Source: an uncultured Acidimicrobiia bacterium (GTDB taxonomy: Bacteria; Acidobacteriota; Terriglobia; Versatilivoradales; Versatilivoraceae). Taken from it: DNA of 64,000 nt. The number at the start of each line of letters is the position of its first letter. Position 1 is the first letter of the stretch. Shown here in pieces: positions 7,755-40,464 of this stretch. Under the pieces are notes generated by a model that had not been told where the DNA came from, searched no databases, and saw nothing but the letters and a program-made list of their open reading frames with translations. Location of the stretch: assembly GCA_963786955.1 (NCBI GenBank), contig CAWBAT010000006.1, positions 1,024,001 through 1,088,000 on the forward strand. The letters run 5' to 3'. The position numbers and the translations under genes are program-made.

Positions 7755-7779
7755 GGTTTTATCCTTTCGGCGGCTGTGG

Positions 7780-11918: not shown

Positions 11919-13324
<1,406 letters not shown>

Positions 13325-13338
13325 GGTGCACTCTTTCG

Positions 13339-14213: not shown

Positions 14214-14239
14214 AACTCACCGTCAGCGCATTCCAGCTT

Positions 14240-15801
14240 TCACTTGGCTTTCGGCGAGGCTCTCGACTTCCAGGTCTGCTTGAATTCGTCGGCGGCCGCC
14301 TTCAACTCGGCCTTCAACGCGTCGCTGAGCGCCTTTTCCTTCCCGATCTTGGCGAGCAACTCGGCCTTTGCGCGTGGTGAAATATTCCGTCAGCTTGTTC
14401 TGGAACTCCTTGACCCGCTCGACAGGCACTTGATCCACGTAACCGTTTTGCGCGGCCCAGATCACGACCACCTGGATCTCCACCGGAATCGGGTTGTACT
14501 GCGCCTGCTTGAAAATCTCCATGATGCGCTTGCCGCGGTCGATCTGCGCCTGCGTCTTGGCGTCGAGGTCCGAGCCGAACTGCGCGAACGCCGCCAGTTC
14601 CCGGAACTGGGCCAGCTCGCCCTTGAGCTGTCCGGCCACTTGCTTCATGGCCTTGAGCTTGCGCCGCCGAGCCGACGCGCGAGACCGAAATGCCGACGTT
14701 GATCGCCGGCCGCACGCCTTGATAGAACAAATCGGTTTCCAGAAAGATCTGTCCGTCGGTGATCGAGATGACGTTGGTCGGGATGTAGGCCGAAACGTCG
14801 CCGGCCTGCGTTTCGATGATGGGCAGCGCCGTGAGCGAGCCGTTGCCATACTTCTCGCCGACCCGCGCCGCGCGTTCGAGCAGCCGGCTGTGCAGGTAAA
14901 ACACATCGCCGGGAAACGCCTCGCGACCCGAAGGCCGCTTCAACAGGAGCGACACCTGCCGGTAGGCCACCGCCTGCTTGGACAGGTCGTCGTAAACAAT
15001 CAACGCGTCCATGCCGTTATCCATGAACCACTCGCCCATCGCCGCGCCGGCAAACGGCACGAGATACTGGTTGGCGGCGGAATCCGAGGCCGGGGAGGCC
15101 ACGACGATCGTGTACGGCATCGCGCCGGCTTCTTCGAGAACCGCAGATGACCCGCGCGATGGTGGACTGCTTCTGGCCGATCGCGACGTAGATGCAGTAG
15201 AGCGGCCGGTAGTCCTTGTCGCCGGCCGCTTCGGCGGCTTTGTTGAGCCGGGCCTGGCTGATGATCGTGTCGATGCAGATCGTTGTCTTGCCGGTCGCGC
15301 GGTCGCCGATGATCAATTCGCGTTGGCCGCGGCCAATCGGAATCATCGCATCAATCGGCATGATGCCGGTCTGCACCGGCTGGCTGACCGAGCGGCGGCG
15401 GATGATGCCGGGCGCGATTTTTTCCACCGGATAGCGTCGTGTCGCTCTTGATCGGCCCTTTGCCATCGATCGGGTTCGCCCAGCACGTTCACGACGCGGC
15501 CCAGCAGGCCCTTGCCCACGGGCACTTGCAAAAGTTTGCCGGTGGTGCGGGCTTCGCCGCCTTCTTTGAGTTGCGTGTAATCGCCGAGGACGACGACGCC
15601 GACTTCGGTCTCGTCGAGATTCAATGCCAGGCCGGTGATGCCGTTGCCGAGGTCGATCATCTCGTTGAGCATGGCGTCGGTCAGGCCTTCGATCTTGGCG
15701 ACGCCGTCGCCAATCTCGCGGATGACGCCCACGTTTTGCTTCGCGGCCGTCGTCTTCGCGCCCGCGATTTGCGCTTCAATTTCTTGCAGTAGGTCAGCCA
15801 T
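14240..15801 (-). CDS. atpA: F1 ATP synthase alpha subunit (frameshifted)
   Basis: [11 protein letters not shown]; [19 protein letters not shown]; YDDLSKQA; [21 protein letters not shown]; FAQFGSDLD; at least 4 frame changes. Confidence 0.93.
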
Positions 15802-21382: not shown

Positions 21383-23077
21383 TCATCTACCGTCAGGCGG
21401 CGCCTTTATCGCCCGGAAACGCTCGACAGCGATCTCCAGATTAAAAAGCATCCGTTCACGGCCCAGCGTATTGGCCAGAGTCGAGCGTTGAACCATCTGT
21501 AAGACCTCCGGGTTAAGTCCTGCCAGCCAGAGGAGGATGCCGCGTTGGCGCACTCTCTCTTCTCCCTCGATCAACATCTTGAGGGCCGAGTATTCAAGAT
21601 CAAAGACACGACTGAAGTCGAGCACGACGACCTGCGGCTTGGCTTGGTCGAGCAACAGTAACAGCTTTTCTCCGATGTGCTGCGCATTCACGAAGAAGAT
21701 CCGGCCTTCCATCCGGATCATCAGCAGGCCGGGAAAGGTCTCGTCTTCAGGGTGTACCTTGGTTAAGGCACGAAAAACATTGGTGCCCGGTTTCCGTCCC
21801 AGGGCATAAACCAGCGGGTTTGCGGCCTGATAAAAGAGAGCGAATAGAGACACGATGATGGCAATCACGATGCCCTGCAAGGTTCCCAGGAGCACCACCC
21901 CGGCACAGGCGATCACCGCCCAGACGAACTCCATGCGACGAATTTGCAGGATGGCGCGGAACTCGGCAGGTTTGATCAGACCCATCGAGTAAATAATGAC
22001 GACTGCAGCCAACGTGGCCTCCGGCATCAATCCCATCAGCGGCGCCAGGACGAGCATGGTCGCCACAGAGATCCCGCAGGTAACCAAAGCCGCCAGTTGA
22101 GTGCGGGCACCGGCATTACAATTCACTGCTGTCTGGGAAGTCCCTCCCCCCGCAGGCATCCCGCCGAATAAACCGCCGCCAACATTCGCCAATCCCGTCG
22201 CCAATAACTCTTGATTCGGTTTGGGACGCGGATCGGTGCTCCGGGCAAAGGCACGTCCGGCTGCGATGGTTTCCGTGAAACTCATCAGTGCGATACCCAG
22301 GGCGCCGGGCCAGAGTTGTTCTACCAACCCGAGATTGGGCATCGTAAAGGCCGGCAATCCTCGAGGAATATGGCCGACGATGGCCACGCCGTGGGCGGCA
22401 AGGCCGAAGCCTCCGGACGCGGCTATCCCAACTGCGACGGCAACCAGCGGCGCTGGAGCCTTGGGCAGAAATCGTTCCACTCCAAGCAGAATTGCCAACA
22501 TGACAACCCCGACGAGAAGTGTCAGCAGAGATGTTTGTGGAAGGTGGCCGATGATCGCGAAAAGGTTATGGACGAAGCGGCCCTTGTCGAAATGGATACC
22601 CAACAACTTGGGCACTTGGTCCAGGATGATGACAAGACCTACCCCCGCTTTGAAGCCGGTCAGCACCGGTTCTGAGATGAAATTGGCCACAAAGCCCAGC
22701 CTGAGGAGGGAGGCCAACAACAGTATGACCCCCACCAATACAGCCAGTGTCGCGGTGGCGCTCAACAGCTCAGCCGGATTGCCATTGGGCACCACCAGGC
22801 CGAGTTCGGCTCCGGTCAGGATGCCAAGGGTCGTGGTAGTACTCACACTAAGAGATCGCGAACTACCCAAGATCGCGTATACCAAAACGGGCACAAAGGC
22901 TGTGTACAGCCCTACCTCAACGGGCAACCCGGCGACAGTGGCGTATGCCATGGCCTTGGGAATGATCACAGCAGCAGTGACCAACCCGGCGATGAGGTCG
23001 AACTGGAGCCAATCGGCCTGGTAGCCAGCAAGCCACTCGCTTATCGGTATCAGTGACGACAGTTTTCCCATCCTCAT
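21383..23077 (-). CDS. SulP family anion transporter with STAS domain
   Basis: DLIAGLVTAAVIIPKAMAYA, GSSRSLSV, NQELLATG, STAS domain. Confidence 0.93.
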   Translation of the reverse strand: MRMGKLSSLIPISEWLAGYQADWLQFDLIAGLVTAAVIIPKAMAYATVAGLPVEVGLYTAFVPVLVYAILGSSRSLSVSTTTTLGILTGAELGLVVPNGNPAELLSATATLAVLVGVILLLASLLRLGFVANFISEPVLTGFKAGVGLVIILDQVPKLLGIHFDKGRFVHNLFAIIGHLPQTSLLTLLVGVVMLAILLGVERFLPKAPAPLVAVAVGIAASGGFGLAAHGVAIVGHIPRGLPAFTMPNLGLVEQLWPGALGIALMSFTETIAAGRAFARSTDPRPKPNQELLATGLANVGGGLFGGMPAGGGTSQTAVNCNAGARTQLAALVTCGISVATMLVLAPLMGLMPEATLAAVVIIYSMGLIKPAEFRAILQIRRMEFVWAVIACAGVVLLGTLQGIVIAIIVSLFALFYQAANPLVYALGRKPGTNVFRALTKVHPEDETFPGLLMIRMEGRIFFVNAQHIGEKLLLLLDQAKPQVVVLDFSRVFDLEYSALKMLIEGEERVRQRGILLWLAGLNPEVLQMVQRSTLANTLGRERMLFNLEIAVERFRAIKAPPDGR

Positions 23078-23169
23078 AACCCTGTCTCCTTATGTCATAG
23101 CACACGGTATCGCAAAGGACGATCTGCGCGTTCCTTAGAACTGCTATTCGTAATTACGGCGACGTTTCT

Positions 23170-23236
23170 GAGGTTAGGCGCCGCGTGGGGTCACGCGGCC
23201 TACAAAGTTGTAGGCCGGGTCACCGACCCGGCGTTA
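23170..23236. repeat. GTAG-type REP element
   Basis: gcggcctacaaagttgtaggccgggtcaccgacccggcgtt; its exact reverse complement lies at ~41390-41430. Confidence 0.75.
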
Positions 23237-23271
23237 ACGTGACCGCATTTATGAACCATGATTCTTAGGCC

Positions 23272-24120
23272 TCAGTATTTTTCCTGGATCCAGCGACGGT
23301 TCTTCATTGGCGTTTCGTCATCGTAGCTATGCTCCTTGGAACGCTTGGGCAGCTTGACCTTTGGCTGAGGAACCGGCTCATAGGGGAAGAGGCTTAGGAA
23401 ATGGGACAGGCAATTGAGACGCGCGCGCTCCTTATCGTCGGAGCGGATGATGTTCCAGGGTGCCCATTCCGTGTCCGTGGCTTCCAGCATCATGTCCCGG
23501 GCCTTGGAATACTCATACCATCGCTCCCGAGATGGTAAATCCATAGCCGAGAGCTTCCATTGGCGGAGCGGATCCTCCATTCTCGCCTCAAAACGCTGTT
23601 TCTGCTCATCGTTATTGACTTCCAGCCAGTATTTGACCAGCTTGATGCCACCCGCAACAATGTAACTTTCAAATGTGGGACAGTTTTTCAGGAAAATACT
23701 GTGCTGTTCCTTTGAGCAGAAACCCATGACGTATTCCACCCCGGCCCGGTTATACCAGCTGCGATCGAAAATGACGACCTCGCCGGCCGCTGGAAAATGG
23801 GCTAGATACCGCTGCATGTAAATCTGTGTTTTCTCCCGATCCGTAGGCGCCGGAAGGGCCACCAGCCGGAATACCCGAGGGCTCACCCTCTCGGTGAGGG
23901 CCCGAATCGTTCCCCCCTTTCCAGCCGCATCGCGCCCCTCAAACACCACAATGACCCTCTGTCCGGTATGTTTCACCCAGTCCTGTAAGACACAAAGCTC
24001 CCTTTGAAGTTTGCGTAGTTCACGCATGTACTCCTTCCCTTTTAGCTTTGGCGTTTGCTCCCCAGTTTTTTCGTCGACAGCACTTTCTTCCTGCTCATTA
24101 TTCGTGTCATGCTTGGACAT
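23272..24120 (-). CDS. ppk2: Polyphosphate kinase 2 (class I-like)
   Basis: FEGRDAAGKGG Walker A, FDRSWYNRAGVE, WKLSAMD, APW, DDKERARLN. Confidence 0.95.
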   Translation of the reverse strand: MSKHDTNNEQEESAVDEKTGEQTPKLKGKEYMRELRKLQRELCVLQDWVKHTGQRVIVVFEGRDAAGKGGTIRALTERVSPRVFRLVALPAPTDREKTQIYMQRYLAHFPAAGEVVIFDRSWYNRAGVEYVMGFCSKEQHSIFLKNCPTFESYIVAGGIKLVKYWLEVNNDEQKQRFEARMEDPLRQWKLSAMDLPSRERWYEYSKARDMMLEATDTEWAPWNIIRSDDKERARLNCLSHFLSLFPYEPVPQPKVKLPKRSKEHSYDDETPMKNRRWIQEKY

Positions 24121-24863: not shown

Positions 24864-25913
24864 ATGAAGATGAACAGATCAAAGAGTGTTTCCCGGCGTG
24901 GGACATGGCTCGTCTGCCTGTCACTTGTTACCCTGATGGTAGCTGTACCCTTTGTGCAGGCACAGACGCCGGCACAAATCGAGTCTGCTCTGAACGCAGC
25001 ATACGCGAAGTACAAGGAACTTCAGGAAGGGAAGAATGCCGACTATATCCCCGCGCTTGCCAAGGTGGATCCTAAGCTGTTTGGGATTGCTATCGTGACG
25101 GCTGACGGGAAAGTGTATACCGTCGGGGATATCACGACGGAGGTCTCGATACAGTCCATTTCGAAGGTGTTTACGATGGCCCAGGTTATCCAGGAACAGG
25201 GCCCTGAGGCCATTGCGCAGAACATCGGAGTGGATGCCACCGGACTCCGGTTCAATTCGATCGTTAGCGTCGAGATCGCGAAGAAGCTCGGGGGAGGACC
25301 GGAGATGAATCCTCTGGTCAATCCGGGGGCAATTACGGCGACAAGTATGGTCAAGGGTGCCAATGCGGAGGAAGTCTGGGCGAAGGTCATCGGGATCGAG
25401 AATGACTGCGCCGGCAGGTCCTTGAGCGTGCTACAGGATATCTACAAGTCTGAATCCGCAACGAACCAGCGAAATCAGGCTATTGGGATGTTGATGTATG
25501 CCTACGAGTACATCAAAGCGAATCCCGCGCAGGCGGTGGACCTCTATACCCGCCAGTGCTCGATCGGCGTCAACGCGAAGGACCTCGCGATGATGGCGGG
25601 AACGCTCGCCTTTGGTGGGAAGAACCCGGTGACGAGGAAACAGGTCATCGATACCCAAAAGGTTCCGTATATCCTCGCTGTCATGGCGACGGCGGGGCTG
25701 TACGATGATAGCGGCAAGTGGCTATATCGGACCGGCCTCCCCGCGAAGAGCGGCGTCGGAGGCGGTATCATTGCCGTCTCACCGGGCAAGTTCGGGATTG
25801 CTGTGGTTTCTCCGCCCCTCGACGAAGCAGGGAACAGTGTCAGGGCGCAGAAGGCGATCACTGACATCTCGAACGCCCTCGGCGGCAATCCATACGCATC
25901 GACAAGGAAGTAA
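24864..25913 (+). CDS. glsA: Glutaminase A with N-terminal signal peptide
   Basis: GKNADYIPALA, SIQSISKVF (SxxK), NPLVNPGAI, GLPAKSGVGGG; N-terminus basic + hydrophobic + VQA|Q. Confidence 0.93.
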   Translation: MKMNRSKSVSRRGTWLVCLSLVTLMVAVPFVQAQTPAQIESALNAAYAKYKELQEGKNADYIPALAKVDPKLFGIAIVTADGKVYTVGDITTEVSIQSISKVFTMAQVIQEQGPEAIAQNIGVDATGLRFNSIVSVEIAKKLGGGPEMNPLVNPGAITATSMVKGANAEEVWAKVIGIENDCAGRSLSVLQDIYKSESATNQRNQAIGMLMYAYEYIKANPAQAVDLYTRQCSIGVNAKDLAMMAGTLAFGGKNPVTRKQVIDTQKVPYILAVMATAGLYDDSGKWLYRTGLPAKSGVGGGIIAVSPGKFGIAVVSPPLDEAGNSVRAQKAITDISNALGGNPYASTRK

Positions 25914-26647
25914 CTGACAAAGCTAGGCTCATTGCGCAAAGAGGCGGTGTCTGGATCGCTGATCAGCCAGCGGTAATTTCTATCCATTGTGTTGTTCCTG
26001 ACCGACTCGAAACGAGCTACCGAGCGCTAAAATAGCTTGCGTTAAATCCACCAGCTATTGGGTAATGCACGCGGCAAATCCCCACCTGCTCGAACAGACA
26101 TCTGGTCAGATCGTAAGTTAGGTCTTGAAGTTTCACCCCACTGAGGGGAAAAGGGTCAGCTGCTTCAGGATTGGCATGAAGTTTGCTATTGAGTGGAGTG
26201 AGGTATTGTCTCCAGCCGCTCACTTCATGGACGGGATCGCACCAGACGGAATGCGAGCAACGAGATGAAGAAAGCAGGGGTGGAAGTGCCTACATCGGAG
26301 ACGAGAGTCATTGAGAAGAAAACTTAGTTGTTTCAATGGCCTTGACTTTCGGGTGGGCCGATCATTGCTCTGTGCTTTTTTTGGCGGACAGAGGGGCTCA
26401 AACGATCGCCATCAATCCAGACCGACTCATGACTTCCAGGTCAAGATGCTGCCTAGTCCACTCATTCGCTTGGATCTGAATTTGTTGCTTTATGTTACTC
26501 ACCGTGAGGAACCATTGCACCTCGGTTCCTCACTCCCAAGGGATCTAGAGTCCCCGTAAGGTCTATCTGCTAAAAGAGCATTTCAAAATACGGTTGCTAT
26601 CATGAGCGCCAAGGCAAGGTCGGTTTAGTAAGGAGAAAGGAGGATTT

Positions 26648-28129
26648 ATGCAGTTGCATGCTCCAACAAAAGAGAACCTAGGTAGAGGGGCAGTTCTTTT
26701 GTTAATTGCATTTCTGGCGATTGCGGCTCATCCACTCCGAGCGCAATCACAGGAGGCCCAAAAGGAAATACCAGATTTGCAGCAGCTGAAGATTAAGCTC
26801 CTGCAACTGGAACAGGCTATGCAAGACCTGAAAAATCAGATTGGCATCGTGGAGCAGGCACAGAAAGCTGCTGGAACCTCTGTCCCCGCACCCCCTCCAC
26901 CTGTCGAGAGTGCCCAGAAAACACCCGCACCCGCTCCTCCTGTCGAAAGCGCCCAGAAAAAATCTGAAAAACCCCCAGTGGCTGTTGCCCAAAAACCGGG
27001 CTCAGACAACACTATCCAATTGTATGGCTTCGTGATGATGGACTCAGGATACGATTTCAAGACAAATAATCCGGACTGGTTCGACGTAGTCCGTCCAACG
27101 AAGTTGCCAGCGTTCAACGGAGAATTTGCCCCGGATGGGAAATTCTATTATGGAGTTCGGCAGACCCGGTTTGGAGTGAAGTCAACCAGGGAAACAAAAT
27201 TTGGCGATCTTAAGACCATTTTTGAATTTGAGTTGTTTGGAACAGGCGTCGACGCCGGTCAGACGACCTTTCGTCTTCGGCATGCTTATGGCGAGCTAGG
27301 ACATTTCGGTGCAGGCCAAACCTGGAGCCCCTTCATGGACATCGATGTCTTTCCCAATTCACTCGAGTACTGGGGACCCAACGGGATGGTCTTTTTCCGT
27401 AACGTGCAGTTTCGCTGGATTCCGATCAAAAGTGAGCGCGGTGAAGTCAACATTGCCATTGAACGCCCCGGGGCAAGCGCTGATCAGGGAGTTTATCAAG
27501 ACCGGATTGAGCTCGAAGGGGTCAGGAGCCAATTCAATATGCCTGACATATCGGGGAATGCCAGGTTGATCAGAAATTGGGGGTACGTGCAGGCGGCAGG
27601 GATTGTCAGGAAGATATCGTGGGTTGACACCAACAATGATGCCTTTAATCTCAGCGGGACCGCTTGGGGGTATGGTTTGAATCTGACCTCAAATCTCAAA
27701 TTCGGAAAGAAAGACGTTGGAAAATTTGCTTTCGTCTATGGCCAAGGTATCGAGAACTACATGAATGACGCCCCAGTCGATATTGGCATTCAAAACAACT
27801 TCAGTGATCCGGTCAAGCCGGTCAAGGGCGTGGCATTGCCGGTACTTGGCATCGTGTCATTCGTGGACCACACTTGGAACAAAAAGTTCAGCACGGCGCT
27901 CGGCTATTCCATGCTGAACATCCAGAACTCCGACGCGCAGCTTCCCTCAGCATTTCATCAGGGCCATTATGCGCTGGGGAACTTACTTTACTATCCAGTT
28001 GATAGTGTCATGCTGGGTGGTGAATTCCAGTTTGGAAGGCGGTTGAACTTTATGGACGGCTTTAATGCGAATGACTATCGCATCCAGTTCTCATTCAGGT
28101 ACAACTGGTCGAAAACTTTCGGATATTGA
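26648..28129 (+). CDS. DcaP-family outer membrane porin with N-terminal coiled coil
   Basis: Signal peptide, coiled coil, YGFVMMD, RQTRFG, FRLRHAYG, GQTWSPFMD, aromatic C-terminal strand. Confidence 0.8.
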   Translation: MQLHAPTKENLGRGAVLLLIAFLAIAAHPLRAQSQEAQKEIPDLQQLKIKLLQLEQAMQDLKNQIGIVEQAQKAAGTSVPAPPPPVESAQKTPAPAPPVESAQKKSEKPPVAVAQKPGSDNTIQLYGFVMMDSGYDFKTNNPDWFDVVRPTKLPAFNGEFAPDGKFYYGVRQTRFGVKSTRETKFGDLKTIFEFELFGTGVDAGQTTFRLRHAYGELGHFGAGQTWSPFMDIDVFPNSLEYWGPNGMVFFRNVQFRWIPIKSERGEVNIAIERPGASADQGVYQDRIELEGVRSQFNMPDISGNARLIRNWGYVQAAGIVRKISWVDTNNDAFNLSGTAWGYGLNLTSNLKFGKKDVGKFAFVYGQGIENYMNDAPVDIGIQNNFSDPVKPVKGVALPVLGIVSFVDHTWNKKFSTALGYSMLNIQNSDAQLPSAFHQGHYALGNLLYYPVDSVMLGGEFQFGRRLNFMDGFNANDYRIQFSFRYNWSKTFGY

Positions 28130-28304
28130 GGGAATGAGAATGGCAATCCAAAGAGCAGTTCAGCCCTTGAGGTCTGCATTTCAAGGTCTAAAACCTGCTA
28201 TCTATTACAGTGCACTCTCATTCAATCTCTCTTCATACTTAAGAGGGTATCGGTTCAGGGGAATTGTGTGCGGCGCCAGATGTCCCTTGACAAAGGGAAG
28301 CTGG

Positions 28305-28470
28305 GAAAAATTCCCCTCCTATTTTAGGAGGGGCTGAAGCCCGCCAGGGCTTCGGGGTGGTAAGGGTCGCCTGCAAGCCGCGATGGGAGCGAATCGGCAC
28401 GATCCACCACCCCCTGAAGGACTGAGGCCCTTCAGTTCCCCTCCTGACCCAGGAGGGGAGTTCTTTCACA
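28305..28470. repeat. Palindromic REP-like cluster (TTCCCCTCC..GGAGGGG family)
   Basis: ttcccctcctattttaggagggg and ttcccctcctgacccaggagggg; similar at 63390. Confidence 0.55.
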
Positions 28471-28599
28471 GCTTCAGACTCGGGCTCGTCGGCGTTTGGC
28501 AGCTGGCGCGTGGCGTGAAGCGAGTAAGAATTATCTGGCGGGCAATAGTCTAGCCAGCAGAATTCTTGTCGACTTCAAGCAAAGACCAGTGGTGACACA

Positions 28600-29938
28600 A
28601 TGCTTCTATGGGTAGAGCTTGCGGTGCTCTTGGCCTCGATTGTCGTGGGGGCTCGGCTGGGCGGGATAGGGCTTGGGCCGATGGGTGGCCTAGGGCTCTT
28701 GGTGTTTGTCTTTTTGTTCCGTCTTCCTCCGGGGAGCCCTCCAGGCACCGTCCTGGGTATGATCCTGGCGGTAATCACGGCGCTCTCGCTCATGCAGGCC
28801 GCAGGGGGTCTTGACTTTGTCATCCAGCTCGCAGAGAAAGTCCTGCGCCGAAACCCTGGCCGCGTGACCATCCTCGCCCCACTCGTCACCTACGTTCTGA
28901 TCCTGGCCTCCGGCACGCAGCACGTCATCTATGCCTTGCTGCCGGTGATCGCCGAGGTTGCGCGCAAGGCCGGGATTCGGCCTGAGCGGCCGCTCTCGAT
29001 CAGCGTGATCGCTTCGCAGCACGGGCTCGTGGCGTCACCAGTTTCCGCAGCGACAGTCGCCCTCATCGGGGGTCTAGCCGCTACGGGAATAGGGCTGCCC
29101 CAAATCTTAATGATCACGATTCCGGCAACATTCCTCGGCGTTGTGGCCGGCACGTTCTCAGTGGCTTTCCGGGGCAAGGAATTAGCCGATGATCCCGAGT
29201 ATCAAAGGCGGCTCGCAGAAGGGAAAGTAACCCCTCCAGCGGCGCGGAGCGAACTGACCGGCCCCGATCGGAGGAAAGCCATCGGGTCTTGTATGGTCTT
29301 CCTGGCCGCGATTATTGCCGTTGTCTTGATTGGGTTGTTTCCGGGCCTCCGGCCGATCTATGAGAAGGTCGCGGAGGGTGTGACGGAAACCGGCCAAGTC
29401 GAGATGGGCCGAGCAGTCATGATCATCATGATGGCAGCGGCCGGTCTGTTACTGGTGGTCTTCCGCGCCGACCCTGAAAAGGCAGTGAAGGGTAGCATCA
29501 TGAAAGGTGGCCTTACCGCTATCATCTGCATCCTAGGGGTCTCTTGGATGGGGTCGTCCTTCTTTGAAGGCAACCAGACACAAATCGTGAACGTCATCTC
29601 CTCAGTTGTGAAGGCCCAACCGTGGGTCTACGCTGCGGGCCTCTTCGCTCTTTCAATTTTGCTTTTTAGCCAAGCCGCGACGATTGTCACCCTGGTCCCT
29701 GTGGCGCTGGCTCTTGGTTTACCGGTACCGCTCATCGTAGGCGCATACCCGGCTGTGAACGGTAATTTCTTCCTTCCCACCTACGGCACGGTGCTGGCCG
29801 CCGTCTCCTTTGACCAGACCGGGACAACCCGGATCGGGAGAGTACTTGCTCAATCATAGTTTTATGCTCCCGGGGCTGGTAACAACTGTGACTGCCACAG
29901 TCGTGGCTTCTGTCATGGCCCAATGGCTCTTAAAGTAA
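28600..29938 (+). CDS. Anaerobic C4-dicarboxylate transporter, DcuA/DcuB family (frameshift near C-terminus)
   Basis: GARLGGIGLG, AAGGLD, IRPERPLS, ASPVSAA, FDQTGTTRIG then YLLNHSFMLPGL..WLLK* in the next frame. Confidence 0.9.
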
Positions 29939-29949
29939 TCTGGAGGTTC

Positions 29950-31443
29950 ATGACGCGTCATCTTTTTTCCTTGCTGGCCGGCGTTATCGGCCTGCTCATG
30001 ATCCCAAGCGTTATTGCCCAACAAACATTCCGGGTGGAAAAGGACCTGCTGGGAGAGAAGCAGATTCCAGCGGATGCCTACTACGGCGTCCAGACCGCGC
30101 GGGCCCTCGAGAATTTTGAAATCTCCGGCGTTCTGATCAATCACTATCCCGGGTTCGTCGAAGCTTGGGCCATCGTCAAATTAGCGGCAGCAAGGGCCAA
30201 CACAGACGTCGGCGCCATGAAACCGGAAACATTAGCTGCCATTGAAAAAGCCTGCCAGGCCGTGCTTGACGGCAAATACCATGATCAGTTCCGGGTAGAT
30301 TGGTACCAGGGCGGAGCCGGAACTTCGACCAACATGAATGCCAACGAGGTGCTCGCGAATATCGCACTAGAGCTCAGCGGGCACAAGAAGGGCGAGTATC
30401 AGTTGGTTGATCCGCACGATCATCTCAATATGTCACAGTCAACCAACGACTCCTACCCCACGGCGATCAAGGTTGCATTTCTTTTGCGGAACAACAAGCT
30501 GATCGAGGAACTGCAGAAGCTGGCGGCTTCTTTTCGGAGGAAAGGGGACGCTTACCTCAAGATCGTGAAGATGGGAAGGACCGAGATGCAGGACGCCGTG
30601 CCCATGACCGTCGGTCAAGAATTTCATGCATTTGCGTCCGCTCTGGAAGGTGAAATCCAGTTGCTGCGGGATGCTGAGAAGTATTTATACTCGGTGAACA
30701 TGGGCGCCACCGCCATTGGAACCGGAATCAACGTCCCCAAAGGATACCCGGAAAAATGCGCGGCCCACCTGGCTAAGTTGACCGGCAAACCCATCGTGCC
30801 GGCCTCTGACATGATTGCTGCCACCTGGGATCAGCAGGGGTTTGTAGTCTATTCCGCGGCGCTCAAGAGCTTGGCCATAAAGCTCTCGAAGATTGCGAGT
30901 GATTTGATCCTGCTCACTTCTGGACCCCGAGCGGGACTGTTCGAGATCAACTTGCCCGCGTTGCAGCCGGGTTCCTCCATCATGCCGGGCAAAGTCAATC
31001 CGGTCCTTCCTGAGCTGATGAATATTGTTGCTTTTCGCGTCATGGGCAATGACTACAGCGTCGGGCTGGCCGCCGACCACGGACAACTCCAGCTCAATGC
31101 CTATGAGCCGCTCGAAGGGCTGGCAGTGATCGAATCACAGAGTCTGCTCTATCGCACTTCCATCGCTTTTCGGACCAAGTGCATCGATGGCATTACCGTG
31201 AACGAAAAAACATTGCAGCACTATATGGAGACCACTGTCGGCATCGTCACGGCGCTCAATCCTATCGTGGGCTATGAAAAAGCAACGGAGCTGGCCGGCG
31301 AAGCTTACAAGAGCGGAAAAGGAATTCTCGAAATCATCCGGGAAAAGAAGGTTCTGTCCGAACAACAAATCCAGGAGTTGCTCGATCCGGTTAAGCTGAC
31401 CGGGCTCGACCCTTCGATGTACGAAAAGAAACCGTCCCAGTAA
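29950..31443 (+). CDS. aspA: Aspartate ammonia-lyase with N-terminal signal peptide
   Basis: RVEKDLLG, YYGVQTARA, QGGAGTSTNMNANEV, GSSIMPGKVNP; GGAGG RBS before MTRHLFSLLAGVIGLLMIPSVIA|QQ. Confidence 0.92.
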   Translation: MTRHLFSLLAGVIGLLMIPSVIAQQTFRVEKDLLGEKQIPADAYYGVQTARALENFEISGVLINHYPGFVEAWAIVKLAAARANTDVGAMKPETLAAIEKACQAVLDGKYHDQFRVDWYQGGAGTSTNMNANEVLANIALELSGHKKGEYQLVDPHDHLNMSQSTNDSYPTAIKVAFLLRNNKLIEELQKLAASFRRKGDAYLKIVKMGRTEMQDAVPMTVGQEFHAFASALEGEIQLLRDAEKYLYSVNMGATAIGTGINVPKGYPEKCAAHLAKLTGKPIVPASDMIAATWDQQGFVVYSAALKSLAIKLSKIASDLILLTSGPRAGLFEINLPALQPGSSIMPGKVNPVLPELMNIVAFRVMGNDYSVGLAADHGQLQLNAYEPLEGLAVIESQSLLYRTSIAFRTKCIDGITVNEKTLQHYMETTVGIVTALNPIVGYEKATELAGEAYKSGKGILEIIREKKVLSEQQIQELLDPVKLTGLDPSMYEKKPSQ

Positions 31444-31459
31444 TACAGGAGGTATTATC

Positions 31460-32524
31460 ATGAAACGCAGGTTCCAACCGTTATGGGGAGTTCTCCTCAC
31501 TACTCTTCTCACCGTCTCCGCGCTCGCTGCGGACAAGCTTCCAACTGTCGTCGTTCTCGCGACTGGGGGCACCATCGCCGGAGCGGCAGCGAGCGATGTT
31601 CAGGCGTCCTACACCTCCGGCCAAGTGGGTGTCGAGCAGCTTCTCGCCGCCGTGCCTCAGACGAAGAAGCTCGCTATGCTGCGGGGAGAGCAGATCTCGA
31701 ACATCGGCTCGCAGGACATGAATGACGAAGTCTGGCTGAAGCTGGCCCGCCGCGTTAACGAGCTTACCGCCATGCCGGATGTGGATGGTGTCGTCATCAC
31801 CCACGGCACTGACACCATCGAAGAGACCGCTTATTTCTTAAATCTCGTCGTCAAGTCGAAAAAACCTGTCGTCCTGACCGCGGCCATGCGCCCATCGACA
31901 GCCCTTTCGGCTGACGGCCCGCTCAACTTCTTCAATGCTGTGGCCGTGGCAGCTAACAAGGATGCAGCAGGCCGTGGCGTGCTGGTGGTGGTCAACGACT
32001 GGATCCACGGCGCCGCCTCTCTCACCAAGACCAGCACCACAGCCGTGCAGACGTTTCTCTCCCCGGTGCGGGGCCTCATCGGCACAGTTGCTTACGGCGA
32101 GATCGAGTTCTATCGTGGTCCCGTGGGCCGAAGCACCACGGACTCAGAGTTCTCGCTGGACGGGGTAACGGCCCTGCCCCGCGTGGACATCATCATGGCC
32201 TACGAGAATATGGATGGAAAACTCATCGAGGCCGCAGTTGCGATTGGGGCGAAGGGAATCGTGATCGCTGGTGTAGGCAACGGCAATATGACGGAGGCAG
32301 CCCTCAACGCACTCGCCGCACAGTCGAAGAAAGGCATCGTCTGCGTGCGTTCTTCGCGTGTGACCACAGGCCGGGTGGGACGTAAGGTTGAAGTAGACGA
32401 CGACAAATTGGGTCTGGTTGCCTCCGAAGGCTTGAATCCCCAGAAGGCGCGGGTGCTACTCCGACTCGCTCTTCTGAAGCCGCGCAGCTTGGACGACATT
32501 CAGCGGATCTTTCAGGAGTACTAA
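31460..32524 (+). CDS. ansB: Type II (secreted) L-asparaginase/glutaminase-asparaginase
   Basis: Signal peptide ALA|AD, ATGGTIAG, HGTDTIEE, SADGP, LNPQKAR. Confidence 0.93.
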   Translation: MKRRFQPLWGVLLTTLLTVSALAADKLPTVVVLATGGTIAGAAASDVQASYTSGQVGVEQLLAAVPQTKKLAMLRGEQISNIGSQDMNDEVWLKLARRVNELTAMPDVDGVVITHGTDTIEETAYFLNLVVKSKKPVVLTAAMRPSTALSADGPLNFFNAVAVAANKDAAGRGVLVVVNDWIHGAASLTKTSTTAVQTFLSPVRGLIGTVAYGEIEFYRGPVGRSTTDSEFSLDGVTALPRVDIIMAYENMDGKLIEAAVAIGAKGIVIAGVGNGNMTEAALNALAAQSKKGIVCVRSSRVTTGRVGRKVEVDDDKLGLVASEGLNPQKARVLLRLALLKPRSLDDIQRIFQEY

Positions 32525-32756
32525 GATGACTCAGCCAAGGGAAATTGGCCAGTTGGAGCCACGCCTCGCTTCGTTCAGCGTGGCTCCCAGGCGTGTAAGA
32601 AGCAGTGAGTCGATAGTCCTGAATATCGTGTAATCTTTGGTAACCACGGTGAGTGCTTTTGCGAGCCGTGGGCTTTTCACCAGTGAGTTGAACTCGCTCG
32701 TTTTTGAAACGGCAGCAATGCAATGGAATAGATTTGGTTCGAAAGGAGAAGGCAAA

Positions 32757-34407
32757 ATGGAAAAAGGATTGAAGGTCATCAGTAGCGTTGAAAGTAGCTG
32801 TGGGAGTTGTAACACGTCGGGCTGTGCGACATGTGCGCCCGCGCCGGTCAAAACTGCGAGCAAGACTTTGTTGAGCCGGAGGGATCTTGGACTTGCCGCC
32901 TTCGCTTCGGCTGCTGCCACGGTTTTTGCCAGCTGCTCCGGTGCACAACCGCCTCAGCAAACGGCCGAAAAAAGCACCCCCCCTGCTACTCCCGCTCCAA
33001 GCGCGTCTAGCCTGTCTCCGGAACTTGACGTGGTCCAAAGGTCGAAGGGAAACATCATGACAGTGCTCGATGAATTTTACAAAATGGGGCCAGGGCCGTC
33101 GAGTTCGCATACCATGGGTCCGATGCGAATCACTTATGATTTCTTTCAGCGAGTATCCAAGCTCCCGGAAGATCAGCTCAAGCGGGCCACCGCGCTTAAG
33201 GTCCACCTCTATGGCAGCCTCAGCGCTACGGGGAAAGGCCATGGCACCGACCGGGCTTCGCTCGCCGGACTATTGGGCAAGGCGCCGGCCACGTGCCCTC
33301 CCGAGTTCCTGGACGGATTGGCCGCCAATCCCGATCAAACGTACAAGGTCATCATAGGTCCGGCGACCCTTAACCTGTCACTGAAAGACATCATCTTCGA
33401 TGCTCCCAAAGGTGAATTTCACCATCCGAACACGATGACCGCGAAGCTGCTCGCCGGCAAACGAGACACTTTACGAGCTGGAATACTACTCGGTTGGCGG
33501 AGGCTTCATCGAGTGGAAGGGCTACAAGCCGCCGGACAAAGGGCAGCCCAAGTACTCATTCTCACACGCCAAGGATTTGAAAAAGTATCTCTTCGACGAC
33601 AAGATCCTCCTTCCGACATTGCTGCTGGAAAATGAAATGGCTATCTCCGGCAAGAGCGAGAAACAGATCTGGGAATTTCTCGACCAAGTTGCCGAAGTCA
33701 TGGTCCGCGGTGTGGACACCGGGCTCAAAGTCGAAAGTGTTCTCCCCGGCCCCATCCAGTTACACAGCAAGGCCGCTTCAATTTATCGTAACTTGAAGAA
33801 CTCCAACAAAGGAGAAGCTGGCCGTGCCATCACCAAGGTAGCCGCATACGGATTTGCCATGGGCGAGGAAAACGCTCGCGGCCATATCATCGTGACCGCA
33901 CCCACCGCCGGGTCCGCGGGAATTCTGCCGGCAGTCCTCAGGTCCCTTCGGGACCTCAATGTGCCGACTCAGAAGATCCGGGAAGGTTTCCTGGCGGCAG
34001 CGGCAATCGGTTACCTTTGCAAACACAACGCCACTCTGTCCGGCGCTGAAGGCGGCTGCCAGGCGGAGGTTGGAGTCGGCTCCTCGATGGCTGCCGCGAT
34101 GATCGCCCAGGCTTTGGGCGCCAGTCCCAAGGTGGTTTCGAATGCTGCCGAATCGGCCCTTGAACACCACCTCGGCATGACATGTGATCCGGTAGCCGGC
34201 TACGTTCAGGTGCCTTGCATCGAGCGCTGCGCCTATGGGGCGGTTAAGGCATGGACCGCCTATTGCATCGCCAGCGAAGAGATTCCCGAACAACGGCGCG
34301 TGGATCTCGACACCACGATTGCGGCCATGGCCATGACTGCCAAGGACATGAATGCCAAGTACAAAGAGACGTCCGAAGCAGGCTTGGCCGCGTTAGTCCT
34401 TTGTTAG
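32757..34407 (+). CDS. sdaA: Fe-S L-serine ammonia-lyase with Tat-lipoprotein-like leader (one frameshift at ~33460)
   Basis: GPGPSSSHTMGP, LYGSLSATGKGHGTD, YYSVGGG (shifted frame), APTAGSAG, GGCQAEVG, MTCDPVAGYVQVPCIERC; leader LSRRDLGLAAFASAAATVFASC. Confidence 0.9.
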
Positions 34408-34474
34408 AATAGGATATGAGACGAACCTAAGTAGATAACACAAACTAATGCGCCAGATTCTTTAACTTCAATCT

Positions 34475-34575
34475 CATTACCCCCGTGCTTCAGCACGGGG
34501 GTAAAAGAGCCCCTCGCTCCCGCCCCCTGTCGAGCCAGCGGCGCAATGCACAGCACCGCTGGCTCGACAGGGGGA
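34475..34575. repeat. Paired hairpins (REP/terminator-like) after sdaA
   Basis: tacccccgtgcttcagcacgggggta; cccctgtcgagccagcgg...ccgctggctcgacagggg. Confidence 0.55.
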
Positions 34576-34671
34576 AGAAAAAAGCCAATCGATGTCCCCG
34601 AGCTAAAGCGCTGGGCTAATGAATTCTGAGGATTGCTTTTTGAAGGTTACTTTAGCCTGATAGTGAACAAA

Positions 34672-35904
34672 ATGAGTAACCGCACGAAAACGGCCGTTGT
34701 CGCCTGGCTTTTGGCAGCCGTGTATTACTTCTATCAATACACGCTCCGCTCTGCACCTGCCGTCATGATGCCGCAGTTGTCCGAGGCATTTGGGCTCAGT
34801 GCACTCGGTGTAGCCTCCATGGTGGGCTTGTTCTACTACGGGTATTCACCGTTTAGCTTGATCGCTGGTGCCGCTATGGATCGTCTCGGGCCGCGGAAGG
34901 TGATCCCGATTGGTGCCGCGGCGGTTGGCATCGGCGCACTCTTGTTCGGTATGGGCAACCAGGCTGCAGCGAGCACAGGAAGGTTTCTGCAAGGCGCGGG
35001 CGGTGTTTTCGCGCTGGTGGGGGCCGTTTCCATTGCCAGTAAGAATTTTCCGGCCTCCCGTGCCGCAACTTTGATTGGGGCAACGCAAATGTTCGGTATG
35101 GCCGGGGGATCGGCCGGCCAGTCAGTGGTCGGGCCAATGATCGCCGGTGGACTCGCCTGGAATCACTTTTGGGTTGGGATGGGCATCACCGGCTTGCTGA
35201 TCAGTGTTCTTCTTTTTATGTTTCTTCCGCGGCAGGAGCAAACAGTCCGAAGTGGCTGGCTGAAGAGCGCAGCTGGAGCTTTAGGCTCCGTTTTCAAAAA
35301 CCCGCAGTCGATCCTTTGCGGCCTGATCGCAGGGCTGCTCTTTATTCCGACGACGATCTTCGACATGATCTGGGGCGTCCGTTTCCTTCAGGAAGCACAC
35401 GGTTTTGACTATGCATCGGCGGTGATGCGTTCGTCAATGGTACCTCTCGGGTGGATCATCGGTTGTCCGCTGCTGGGTCTGCTCTCAGATCGGATCGGGC
35501 GTAGGAAACCGGTGATTATCGGAGGGGCGATCGTTCTTTTAGCGTGTCTCGCCTGGGCGCTCTATGGCAGCCCCAACATCTTCCCTCCTTACGTCATCGG
35601 CTTGGCAGCGGGACTCGGGTCAGGCGCGGCGATGCTGCCGTACACGGTGATTAAGGAAGCGAACCCTCCGGAGTTCAGCGGCACAGCCACCGGGGTGGTC
35701 AATTTTCTGAATTTCACCTTCAGCGCACTGCTGGGGCCGGTGTTTGGACGGATTCTCCAGAAGGTATCGGGCGGGGCCTCGCAAATGACGCTGGAGCATT
35801 ACCAGGCTGGATTTGAGCCGCTTCTGTATGGTGTGGCCATTGCTATTGTGCTCACTTTTCTTTTGAAAGAGACAGGGCCGGCATGTCAAAAAAACGTCTC
35901 ATGA
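34672..35904 (+). CDS. MFS transporter
   Basis: Hydrophobic multi-TM protein, GAAMDRLGPRK and GLLSDRIGRRK motif A copies. Confidence 0.9.
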   Translation: MSNRTKTAVVAWLLAAVYYFYQYTLRSAPAVMMPQLSEAFGLSALGVASMVGLFYYGYSPFSLIAGAAMDRLGPRKVIPIGAAAVGIGALLFGMGNQAAASTGRFLQGAGGVFALVGAVSIASKNFPASRAATLIGATQMFGMAGGSAGQSVVGPMIAGGLAWNHFWVGMGITGLLISVLLFMFLPRQEQTVRSGWLKSAAGALGSVFKNPQSILCGLIAGLLFIPTTIFDMIWGVRFLQEAHGFDYASAVMRSSMVPLGWIIGCPLLGLLSDRIGRRKPVIIGGAIVLLACLAWALYGSPNIFPPYVIGLAAGLGSGAAMLPYTVIKEANPPEFSGTATGVVNFLNFTFSALLGPVFGRILQKVSGGASQMTLEHYQAGFEPLLYGVAIAIVLTFLLKETGPACQKNVS

Positions 35905-35959
35905 CGCTGTGCGGCGCCACGTTCCATGAAAATGAGTCCCCTCCTCTAGAGGGGTGCAG

Positions 35960-36062
35960 GGGTGGGTTGCCGCGAGCCGGAAAGACCCACCCCTGAAGGC
36001 TAAAGCCTTCTTTCCCCTCCCAAGAGGGGATTCCAAGGAGAAAAGGATATGAATCGCAAGCC
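35960..36062 (+). repeat. 103-bp direct repeat, copy 1
   Basis: gggtgggttgccgcgagccgg...aaggagaaaaggatatgaatcgcaagcc identical to 36656-36758. Confidence 0.9.
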
Positions 36063-36179
36063 AGGATACCGGTCATTCTCACCAGCCGGGCGAACAGCGT
36101 CCAGGCCGGCACGGCTGGCTGCGCCGTGGGGATGCTTGCGGTTCATCCGAAACGTCAAGGAATAGTGAGGGAGAGCTGA
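36063..36179 (+). pseudogene. C-terminal remnant of phosphate acetyl/butyryltransferase
   Basis: RIPVILTSRANSVQAGTAGCAVGMLAV resembles the Pta/Ptb C-terminal consensus GARVPIILTSRADS. Confidence 0.65.
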
Positions 36180-36260: not shown

Positions 36261-36283
36261 TTTCGCAATTGAAAGGAGAAGTT

Positions 36284-36574
36284 ATGAACGGGAACAGGCT
36301 TATCCTTGCTTGTGGGCTTCTGCTTTGCCTCGTGGGAATTTCTTGTGAGAAGAATCAGATGCCAGTGCGTCCTGAACTAAAGTTGAGTTTTGAGGCAATC
36401 AAAACCCAAAATTCTATCCCTGCGGAGTATGGAGAACTGGAAGGGGTTGTCGCAGATTCGCCAAACTTCGCAAGGATGTTTTTTGAAAAGGAAGACAAGA
36501 GTATTATTGTCGTCACCGTCAATGTGGTCGACGGATTCCTTCAAGATCGTGTCCTCGTTATTCCACGCAAGTAG
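36284..36574 (+). CDS. Small hypothetical lipoprotein
   Basis: AAAGGAG RBS; MNGNRLILACGLLLCLVGIS|C lipobox-like. Confidence 0.7.
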   Translation: MNGNRLILACGLLLCLVGISCEKNQMPVRPELKLSFEAIKTQNSIPAEYGELEGVVADSPNFARMFFEKEDKSIIVVTVNVVDGFLQDRVLVIPRK

Positions 36575-36655
36575 TAGACCAATGGGGCCGCTTCCAGACA
36601 GCTTTCACCGCGTCCGGAATGATGGATGTGTGGATAGGATCTGCCAAGAGTCCAC

Positions 36656-36758
36656 GGGTGGGTTGCCGCGAGCCGGAAAGACCCACCCCTGAAGGCTAAA
36701 GCCTTCTTTCCCCTCCCAAGAGGGGATTCCAAGGAGAAAAGGATATGAATCGCAAGCC
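36656..36758 (+). repeat. 103-bp direct repeat, copy 2
   Basis: Identical to 35960-36062. Confidence 0.9.
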
Positions 36759-36790
36759 CGGAACTGCAAAAAACGAAAGGCTGTGACTCA

Positions 36791-38204: not shown

Positions 38205-40464
38205 ATGAGCACTACTACAAAGATGACCTCAGAAGGAGTGATGCTGGCCTGGCGGTGCTTTCAGCCAGGCCTATGGCAGAAAGAAATCAACGTTCGCGAT
38301 TTCATCCAGCAGAACTACACGCCCTACGAGGGAGACGACTCCTTCCTTGCGCCCCCGACGGAGCGCACCACGAAGATCTGGAATCATTTGAAGGAACTGT
38401 TTGTGGAGGAGCGCAGAAAAGGGGTCCTCGACGTCTCCGTAATTCCAAGTTCCATTACCGCGCACGGACCGGGCTACATTGATCGCGAGAATGAAGTCAT
38501 CGTCGGTCTTCAGACCGAGGCGCCGCTCAAACGCGCCATTATGCCCAATGGTGGATTTCGCATGGTTGTCAACGCCCTCAAAGCGTACGGCTACAAGCCC
38601 GATCCGCACGTTGTTGAGACATTCACCAAATATCGCAAGACGCACAACGAGGCCGTGTTCGATGCCTACACGGCAGACGTCAGGCGGTGTCGCAGCTCGC
38701 ACATCCTCACTGGCCTGCCCGACGCTTACGGGCGCGGCCGCATCATTGGCGACTACCGCCGCGTGGCCCTTTACGGGGTCTCCCGGCTCATTGAACGGAA
38801 ACAGCAGGAAAAACTCAGCCTCGATGCAGCCATGTCAACGGAAGAGATTATCCGCGACCGGGAAGAACTCAGCGAGCAGACCCGGGCGCTCAAAGAACTG
38901 CAGCAGATGGCCGCCAGTTACGGATTCGATATCTCGTTGCCGGCCAGCAATGCCCGAGAAGCCGTCCAGTGGCTTTACTTTGGCTATCTGGCGGCCGTGA
39001 AAGAACAGAACGGCGCCGCCATGTCTTTAGGCCGGACGTCGAGTTTCCTCGACATCTACTTTGAACGGGACCTTGCGGCTGGCACGATCACCGAGGCCGA
39101 GGCCCAGGAGATCGTCGATGATTTCGTGATTAAACTGCGCATCGTTCGCTTTTTGCGCACACCGGAATACGATGACCTTTTCGCCGGCGATCCTACTTGG
39201 GTCACCGAGTCGATTGGCGGCATGGGAGACGACGGCCGGACGCTGGTAACGAAAACGAGCTTTCGCTTTCTCCAGACCCTCTACAACCTCGGCCCTGCCC
39301 CGGAGCCGAATCTGACCATCTGGTATTCCCCGCGTCTTCCCGATGGCTTTCGGCATTTCTCCGCCAAAGTCGCGATCGACACGAGTTCCCTTCAATTCGA
39401 AAACGACGAAATCATGCGCCGCGCTTGGGGCGACGACGGAGCGATCGCCTGCTGTGTGTCTCCGATGCTGGTCGGCAAGCAGATGCAGTTTTTCGGCGCC
39501 AGGGCCAATCTCGCCAAGTGTCTGCTTTACGCCATCAATGGCGGGCGGGACGAAATCAGTGGAAAACAGGTGGCCCCCAACTTTGGAGGAGTCCAAGGCG
39601 AAATCCTCGAATTCGATGACGTGAGGGAGAAGTTCGAGAAGATGATGGATTGGCTTGCCAAATGTGTACGTCAATGCCATGAACATCATTCACTTCATGC
39701 ATGACAAGTACGCCTATGAACGCATCGAAATGGCATTGCACGACTACGCCCCGCTGCGGACGATGGCGTTCGGCATCGCAGGCCTGTCCGTCGTGGCCGA
39801 CAGCCTGTCGGCGATCCGAGACGCAAGAGTGCGTGTGCTGCGGGACGAGACCGGGCTCGTGACCGGCTATCAGACCGAAGGTGATTTCCCCAAGTTCGGC
39901 AACAACGACAATCGCGTTGACCACCTCGCTACCTGGGCAGTGAGCACCTTCATGAGCAAGTTGAGGAAGTACCCCACTTATCGAAATGCGCTGCACACCC
40001 AATCGGTCCTGACAATCACTTCGAACGTCGTGTACGGAAAAAACACTGGCGATACTCCAGACGGGCGGCATCGCGGGGAACCCTTTGCTCCAGGTGCGAA
40101 TCCAATGCATGGTCGGGATCAACATGGCATCCACGCATCGGCGGCATCGGTTGCGAAGATCCCGTATCGTGATGCTGCTGACGGAATCTCGTATACCGTG
40201 TCGATGGTGCCGCAAGGCCTTGGAAGAGTCGCGGAGGACCGGATAACCAATCTGACAAGCATGCTCGATGCATTCTTTGGCAGCACCGGCTATCACATGA
40301 ACGTGAACGTGTTTAATCGCGAGACACTTCTGGACGCGATGGATCATCCCGAAAAGTACCCGCACCTGACGATTCGCGTGTCCGGCTATGCAGTCAATTT
40401 CGTGCGATTGACTCGAGAACAACAATTGGATGTGATCAATCGCACCTTCCACGGATCCGTGTAA
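38205..40464 (+). CDS. pflB: Pyruvate formate-lyase (one frameshift at ~39660)
   Basis: [56 protein letters not shown] glycyl radical loop. Confidence 0.95.

Follow-up and report, generated by a model that had tools for sequence, protein, structure and literature searches.

The window analysed in the present study is a stretch of 64,000 nucleotides (nt), in which seven genes, all on the plus strand, lie between positions 24864 and 35904: glsA (glutaminase A), a gene for a DcaP-like outer-membrane porin, dcu (C4-dicarboxylate carrier), aspA (aspartate ammonia-lyase), ansB (type II L-asparaginase), sdaA (iron-sulfur (Fe-S) L-serine dehydratase) and a gene for a carrier of the major facilitator superfamily (MFS). 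All four enzymes begin with an N-terminal leader of the export type, and these leaders are kept across hundreds of relatives. With moderate confidence, we favour the interpretation that the cluster is a horizontally spread catabolic module, which would move the deamination of amino acids out of the cytoplasm. An initial annotation of this DNA had described the genes as co-oriented, with the same identities, and had read a leader in each enzyme (VQA/Q in GlsA, VIA/Q in AspA, ALA/A in AnsB and SRRDL..FASC in SdaA; the slash marks the predicted cleavage site). Orientation and identities were borne out by the list of open reading frames (ORFs) and by Pfam and NCBIfam model searches of the window proteins, and each of the four leaders was found in the translations. 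Positions and strand could likewise be retained, but the starts or ends of glsA, dcu, aspA, sdaA and the MFS gene had to be revised. The host assembly (G000) comprises 5.65 Mb in nine contigs and is 93.3% complete, and the window covers 1024001-1088000 of its contig C6. The nearest relatives of its proteins bear source names such as Terriglobia and Blastocatellia, which marks the host as an acidobacterium. The assembly was compared with two congeneric genomes (G001 and G002).

The aspA gene (29950..31443) starts at ATG 29950 (MTRHL) with GGAGG upstream, the gap to the true dcu stop at 29938 being 11 nt. The protein reached 654.2 bits against NF008909 (cut-off 510) and 618.7 bits against the stricter TIGR00839, which is below the cut-off of that model (681.2). 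It was closer to aspartases of known structure (6wng 520, 1jsw 475 and 1j3u 470 bits) than to the best fumarase (357 bits), and it carries GSSIMPGKVNP, an instance of the GSSxMPxKxN pattern that we take to be the signature of the mobile SS-loop. From the studied members of the family, which are cytoplasmic and have no signal peptide, the window protein departs by the presence of a leader: residues 26–479 aligned to residues 4–458 of E. coli AspA (1jsw), and the aligned part is preceded by a 23-residue leader of the Sec type, MTRHLFSLLAGVIGLLMIPSVIA/QQTFRVEKD.

The glutaminase, encoded at 24870..25913 (longest ORF from 24864), belongs to PF04960 and exceeded the cut-offs of both NF009020 (429.2 against 395 bits) and TIGR03814 (345 against 255.4 bits). 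Its closest studied relative is E. coli YbaS (1u60, 302 bits), in which the same motif aligned with the catalytic Ser-x-x-Lys of the window enzyme, SISK. Residues 36–342 aligned to residues 6–308 of YbaS, leaving about 30 extra residues at the N-terminus, which include the Sec-type leader MNRSKSVSRRGTWLVCLSLVTLMVAVPFVQA/QTPAQ. The start is probably ATG 24870 (MNRSK), with GGAGG 6 nt upstream, and not ATG 24864, because the same GGAGG directly abuts the latter. The third enzyme, AnsB (31460..32524, with AGGAGG 8 nt before the start), matched TIGR00520 with 438.3 bits (cut-off 314.3); the E. coli-specific model NF008304 gave 438 bits, below its cut-off of 506. The signal peptide ..TVSALA/ADKLP and the motifs TGGTIAG and HGTDT, presumably those of type II asparaginases, were all present.

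The serine dehydratase gene (32757..34407) is probably of the single-chain type, encodes a leader of about 100 residues, and starts at ATG 32757 (MEKGL), preceded by AGGAG; a Shine-Dalgarno site thus lies ahead of the leader start codon in all four enzyme genes. It is split by a frameshift into two ORFs, which match SDH_beta and SDH_alpha, and its halves scored 85.8 and 278.9 bits against TIGR00720, the cut-off of which (345.1) applies to the whole protein. Intact relatives of about 543 residues hold both Pfam domains, SDH_beta and SDH_alpha, and Cys434, Cys476, Cys487 and Cys491 were invariant in 74 relatives.

The conservation of the Sec-type leaders was examined with a simple test, in which a basic residue had to be followed by at least nine uncharged residues with a mean hydropathy of at least 1.6. 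Among the 120 best relatives of AspA (84–94% identical), 114 passed; of the six failures, five have their start within the hydrophobic stretch and the sixth (P0050) has it 6 residues ahead of the mature domain. For GlsA, 112 of the 120 best relatives (73–100% identical) passed, and the other eight begin inside the hydrophobic stretch. The closest homologues do not start downstream of the leaders. The related loci described below gave the same picture, 75 of 79 AspA, 27 of 28 GlsA and 53 of 54 AnsB proteins being leader-positive. The leader sequences vary freely, and what is kept is a basic n-region, a hydrophobic core and an A-x-A-type site, with mature parts that are 73–94% identical. As a control, 27 cytoplasmic-type AspA/FumC-family loci of relatives (36–45% identical) were put to the same test, and only two passed, both by way of far-upstream starts. 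The host genome itself encodes a leaderless paralogue of the glutaminase (41% identical) and another of the asparaginase (34% identical), and the genome search revealed no second AspA, SdaA or Dcu. Since 25 of the 27 cytoplasmic-type homologues failed and the paralogues of the host are leaderless, the sequences indicate that the leaders are more than chance features.

The leader of the serine dehydratase is of a different design. In the window, where its signal part with the Cys4 n-region lies at 32757-32939, it consists, in this order, of a cysteine motif C-x2-C-x4-C-x2-C (Cys4), the twin-arginine motif LSRRDLG, a hydrophobic stretch, the lipobox FASC and a Pro/Ala/Ser-rich linker; the region of the twin-arginine (Tat)-type motif reads LSRRDLGLAAFASAAATVFA. 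The 120 relatives best matching the intact part of the G001 gene (71–100% identical, about 543 residues) open with M-x-K-x-L-x-V-I, followed by the Cys4 motif in 118 cases. The strict pattern RR[DEQNKSTAG][LFIVM] was matched by 112 of the 120, the rest having RRxW and similar variants; an Ala-rich hydrophobic stretch follows, and the lipobox cysteine matched a loose pattern in 116. The residue at -3 of the lipobox is an atypical F in the window (FASC), whereas G001 has LAGC. A Pro/Ala/Ser-rich linker of about 25 residues then leads to the segment LSPDLAVVQxSKGPIMT and to the mature enzyme. In the window this joining segment, with the general form LSP[DE]L[AN]VV[QK]xSKGP[IV]MT, lies at 33010-33060. 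Sixteen sdaA genes were found in the 80 related aspA loci, and all 16 carry the RR motif; three are of the Cys4 type, and the others combine a long acidic n-region with GVDRRxFLxRSAV and a site of the A-x-A type. Judged by these patterns, the Fe-S SdaA is the only cluster enzyme that carries Tat-type signals, which come in two designs, and the predicted twin-arginine signal on this enzyme alone fits the export of a folded cofactor protein.

A scan of the ORFs of the host genome for leaders with both Cys4 and RR motifs returned SdaA only. A profile built from four Cys4 leaders gave 56 matches among 1.84 billion representative sequences, of which the genuine ones were N-terminal fragments or frameshifted calls of SdaA and the others repetitive proteins, with no second family. 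To our knowledge, neither a Tat signal with a C-x2-C-x4-C-x2-C n-region nor an exported L-serine dehydratase is known. A guess at the role of the Cys4 n-region is the cytoplasmic binding of a metal or an Fe-S cluster. For one intact SdaA precursor (P0242), AlphaFold2 run with 73 relatives gave a mean predicted local distance difference test (pLDDT) score of 63, and because residues 1–90 scored below 50 the model is uninformative on the fold or docking of the Cys4 leader.

The opposite explanation, that the leaders do not lead to export, was also considered. The enzymes would then be cytoplasmic, owing to internal starts or to uncleaved anchors on the inner face of the membrane, and the cluster would be partly decayed in this strain. 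An internal Met does lie within the hydrophobic stretch of both the window GlsA (M25 of the 349-residue ORF) and AspA, and a further Met lies at the leader/mature junction of many SdaA proteins. The latter, in ..KGPIMT.., aligns with the expected start of leaderless enzymes, and in the window AAGGG precedes it by about 7 nt; in several relatives the position is taken by V or L. Against this explanation, the leaders are open, basic and then hydrophobic, and variable in sequence in 114 of 120 AspA, 112 of 120 GlsA and 118 of 120 SdaA relatives, and their charge distribution would put the C-terminal enzyme outside. Moreover, the AspA leader of G001 differs in sequence (MKIHRVLLLAALIGLLLIPNASA/QQ) and holds no in-frame ATG, GTG or TTG between the start and the mature part, so that it must be translated, and the Shine-Dalgarno sites lie ahead of the leader starts. 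We therefore regard intracellular enzymes with non-functional leaders as very unlikely.

The part of this explanation that concerns decay draws on frameshifts in two of the genes. The sdaA gene is split by one extra A in the AAA run at 33458-33460, and without this base it reads ..LLAGNETLYELEYYSVGGGF.., the same as in G001 and G002. In dcu (28600..29938; DcuA/DcuB family, PF03605 441 bits, NF006927 476 bits), a one-base frameshift near 29835 causes the listed ORF to stop early at 29859; the C-terminus continues in another frame to the real end at 29938 and matches the intact dcu of G001 and G002. Contigs from two public sequencing runs (X2, about 98% likeness, and X3, lower) are one base shorter exactly at 33458/33460. 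The congeners are broken elsewhere in the same genes, namely ansB and sdaA in G001, and dcu, aspA, sdaA and the MFS gene in G002. One-base frameshifts were also seen in pflB of the host (38205-39704). Because the congeners break at different sites and the near-identical public contigs do not have the extra base, the breaks in sdaA and dcu of the host are probably assembly errors and not signs of decay, and the one-base indels across G000, G001 and G002 suggest uncorrected errors in all three assemblies. None of the public sequencing runs held more than 0.11 of the sampled words, and hence no claim on habitat or strain is made. In one run (X19), contigs of an RNA library match parts of aspA and ansB and of the sdaA leader with a likeness of roughly 90–95%; as these contigs stem from relatives and DNA may be present in the library, they were not counted as evidence of expression.

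The export machinery of the host was found in part. LspA (PF01252, 137 bits) and two TatA genes are present, but no TatC (PF00902) was found in the 93.3% complete assembly, despite the presence of TatA and of Tat-type substrates, a point that also favours leaders without export. Of 41 relatives searched, 39 have a TatC, among them G001 and G002, whose genomes hold the same sdaA. No DNA match to the 3.6-kb tatC region of G002 was obtained in the host assembly, and the absence of the gene fits a stretch that was left unassembled.

Several points weigh against the catabolic interpretation. The Sec, Tat and lipoprotein calls rest on pattern reading, the leader test being a heuristic of our own; the AspA relative P0050 starts only 6 residues ahead of its mature domain; and an internal start at the SdaA junction Met, giving a cytoplasmic isoform, is conceivable from the sequence. 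With sdaA and dcu frameshifted, these genes could be pseudogenes in this strain, and no TatC was found in the host assembly. The substrates assigned to the MFS carrier and the porin are putative, and an oxygen-labile Fe-S enzyme in the periplasm would be workable only under low oxygen.

The spread of the cluster was followed through aspA. Within the family of the host, AspA proteins at least 90% identical were found only in the same genus (G001 and G002), all other matches among 41 relatives being 45% identical or less. In an even sample of the phylum (401 genomes), nine genomes spread across several families, the host among them, had AspA of at least 74% identity, and eight more, among them the unpublished genome G189, had AspA at 58–61%. 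A scan of species-representative genomes yielded 579 AspA relatives, and the best 80 of these loci (80–91% identical), on which all locus counts given here are based, came from at least eight phyla. All 80 are from metagenome-assembled genomes, several on contigs of 0.7–4.7 Mb, and the carriers are labelled Terriglobia, Blastocatellia/Pyrinomonadaceae, Thermoanaerobaculia, Bacteroidota, Ignavibacteriota, Calditrichaceae, Zixiibacteriota, Eisenbacteria, Elusimicrobia and Dongiaceae. This patchy, cross-phylum distribution at 80–90% identity suggests, from sequence comparison, a recent horizontal spread of the module.

Neighbouring genes were counted in those 53 of the best 80 loci that extend over at least 15 kb. 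AnsB was found near aspA in 45 of the 53, Dcu in 33, a DcaP-like porin in 30 (usually next to glsA), GlsA in 26, an MFS carrier in 14 and SdaA in 10. At least one of these partners was present in all 53 long loci (76 of the 80 overall), and at least three kinds of partner in 34 of the 53. An MFS homologue follows sdaA or aspA in 28 of the 80 loci. The gene order is variable; porin-glsA, aspA-ansB-dcu and sdaA-MFS nevertheless recur as sub-modules. The check for the cluster in other genomes, which had been proposed along with the initial annotation, thus showed that it recurs with the DcaP-like porin, Dcu and the MFS carrier across the 80 loci. Of the genes listed there, glsA is not a fixed member in the genus: it lies beside the cluster only in the host, was not found in G001, and in G002 is represented only by a leaderless paralogue. 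In the host it sits between the porin gene and two minus-strand genes at 21383-24120 directly upstream of the cluster, which by eye were read from their translations as a SulP-family anion carrier and a PPK2-type polyphosphate kinase, and which also precede the cluster in G002. One 501-residue gene call (P0174) holds both DcaP and Glutaminase Pfam domains, and may be a fused call of two neighbours or a true fusion.

Genes of fermentation were also found near the module. Within 10 kb of aspA, ackA was present in 23, pta in 19 and pflB in 16 of the 80 loci, and in the window genes for PflB, Pta and AckA directly follow the cluster. Other neighbours within the same distance were DUF2950 (34 loci), DUF3300 (30), a signal-bearing Amidohydro_2 protein (24) and a second outer-membrane protein (23). 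The exported DUF3300, DUF2950 and Amidohydro_2 proteins and the second outer-membrane protein, which has no Pfam match, recur in or beside the module, for example at 4505-9918 and 13200-14972 of locus L056; in G001, DUF3300 and DUF2950 genes lie between the MFS gene and pflB.

The porin (26648..28129), which has a signal peptide and an N-terminal coiled-coil-like stretch, matched PF19577 with 76 bits (gathering score 27) over residues 119–486, corresponding to model positions 63–409 of 410; no NCBIfam model matched. The MFS carrier (34672..35904; PF07690, 131 bits) is of the anion:cation-symporter type, and its start, judged by comparison with G001, is probably at 34672. Its best NCBIfam match, below the cut-off, was a D-galactonate-transporter subfamily, and it is a candidate for the uptake of pyruvate or glutamate as a carboxylate product.

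What the genes are, that they are linked, and that the leaders exist and are conserved is shown by the sequences. From these data we infer the following route, in which it is a prediction that the enzymes are exported, which substrates they and the carriers use, in which direction transport runs and what purpose the whole serves. Entry of amino acids through the outer membrane would probably be by way of the DcaP-like porin. Two Sec-exported enzymes would then act in sequence in the periplasm, AnsB converting asparagine to aspartate and AspA converting aspartate to fumarate and NH4+; where present, Sec-exported GlsA would convert glutamine to glutamate. The Tat-exported, lipid-anchored Fe-S SdaA would form pyruvate and NH4+ from serine. 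The ammonium would stay outside, while Dcu would import fumarate (or aspartate) and the MFS carrier a second carboxylate, and the imported products would feed a cytoplasmic fumarate reductase or succinate dehydrogenase and the adjacent PflB-Pta-AckA route. A periplasmic fumarate reductase was rejected, as the SdhA/FrdA-type flavoprotein of the host has no Tat signal, and for the same reason fumarate would have to enter the cell in order to be used. The neighbouring PflB, Pta and AckA genes fit the fermentation of imported pyruvate and operation under low oxygen, a condition that matters because an exposed Fe-S enzyme would need it.

Two other purposes could be served by the same reactions. The initial annotation had proposed that ammonia released in the periplasm buffers acid in place of a urease, in which case the carbon skeletons would be a by-product. 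If export is real, all four reactions would indeed free ammonia outside the cytoplasm; many carriers of the module are Acidobacteriota, and in E. coli a GlsA-family glutaminase takes part in acid resistance. The cluster, however, contains no amino acid antiporter, acid-resistance gene or regulator, and glsA is dispensable within the genus. The linked genes encode carboxylate importers and, in 16–23 of the 80 loci, pflB, pta and ackA, which fits catabolism better, and the module also occurs in Bacteroidota, Ignavibacteriota, Calditrichota, Pyrinomonadaceae and others, none of which is tied by any result of this study to acid habitats. Acid tolerance, for which no specific support was obtained, is in our view an unlikely purpose.

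Nitrogen scavenging, in which the exported enzymes would free NH4+ for uptake and the use of carbon would be secondary, shares the reactions and the predicted location with the catabolic route, and other bacteria obtain nitrogen with the help of periplasmic AnsB-type enzymes. Among the ORFs of the cluster, however, we saw no amtB, glnK or gene of nitrogen regulation, and the importance of the carbon skeletons is suggested by the tight linkage to fermentation genes, Dcu and the MFS carrier. We consider it quite unlikely that nitrogen supply is the main role.

A 22-bp perfect-type inverted repeat between sdaA and the MFS gene (34523..34574) forms a hairpin with an RNA folding energy of -55.7 kcal/mol (z = -7.8), and has no T tail on the plus strand. 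A promoter scan was uninformative, with 7 sites against 5.8 expected, and the terminator-like sites (23 against 12.8 expected) were mostly weak. An Rfam search detected no riboswitch or known leader RNA, giving sub-threshold matches only. Between the MFS gene and ackA, two copies of a 113-nt direct repeat (35954-36066 and 36650-36762; 97% identical, 696 nt apart) flank a small lipoprotein-like ORF (36269-36574). Each copy has a match to a whalefall-1-like RNA on the minus strand with 32.6 bits, below the gathering score of 37, and in G002 pta lies at the corresponding place.

Aspartase, the GlsA-type glutaminase and the Fe-S serine dehydratase are textbook cytoplasmic enzymes. In a search of full-text literature, export was reported neither for AspA or SdaA nor for a glutaminase of the GlsA family; genome surveys might list such predictions in supplementary tables, which lay outside this search. 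If the catabolic interpretation is true, the site at which nitrogen is released from amino acids would shift in many uncultured soil and sediment bacteria, which would affect models of ammonium release, cross-feeding and amino acid turnover. Pathway reconstructions that assume the uptake of asparagine, aspartate, glutamine and serine would then be wrong, since fumarate, glutamate and pyruvate would be taken up instead. The Cys4 Tat leader, found on SdaA only, is a well-defined, testable oddity of Tat signal biology. As a joint and speculative proposal, in which we place low confidence, a mobile module present in at least eight phyla would provide the first cases of export for an aspartase, for a GlsA-type glutaminase and, through Tat and with a lipid anchor, for an Fe-S serine dehydratase, and the Cys4 n-region of the last of these might act as a checkpoint that binds a metal or an Fe-S cluster in the cytoplasm and holds back or silences the enzyme until its own cluster has been inserted and it has been exported.

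Helicobacter pylori and Campylobacter jejuni possess a periplasmic AnsB together with a gamma-glutamyltranspeptidase, and take up aspartate and glutamate by DcuA and GltS. The predicted module is similar to these systems in that exported enzymes would act in the periplasm, ammonia would be left outside, and a Dcu-type carrier would import the product. In those species, however, only the amide groups are removed outside, AspA and SdaA being cytoplasmic, whereas here the lyases carry export signals. The C. jejuni AspA is given without a signal and called cytoplasmic in a published article (PMC8708908). The glutaminases also differ, that of the window being a member of the GlsA family and not a gamma-glutamyltranspeptidase.

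In E. coli, aspA and dcuA form an operon. The same families are combined in the window, with dcu directly upstream of aspA at a distance of 11 nt. Unlike the window enzyme, E. coli AspA has no leader, and the carrier of the proposed module would import fumarate and not aspartate. An exchange of L-aspartate for C4-dicarboxylates by DcuA-type carriers is described in another article (PMC10634366).

The term "periplasmic glutaminase" referred, according to the titles and abstracts of the literature found, to the glutaminase-asparaginase of Pseudomonas. Both this and the window enzyme, if exported, would hydrolyse glutamine (and, for the Pseudomonas enzyme, asparagine) in the periplasm, but the former belongs to the asparaginase family, whereas the latter is a serine-dependent GlsA (PF04960) closest to YbaS. 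E. coli YbaS (GlsA1, 1u60) shares the family model and the SxxK motif with the window protein, and differs from it in having no leader. YbaS acts in the cytoplasm. The porin resembles the DcaP porin of Acinetobacter (PF19577) in that nearly the full model was matched, yet with only 76 bits. With Tat-exported cofactor proteins and Tat lipoproteins, the SdaA leader shares the S-R-R-x-[FL] motif, a moderately hydrophobic core and a lipobox cysteine, while the Cys4 n-region is, in this comparison, peculiar to SdaA.

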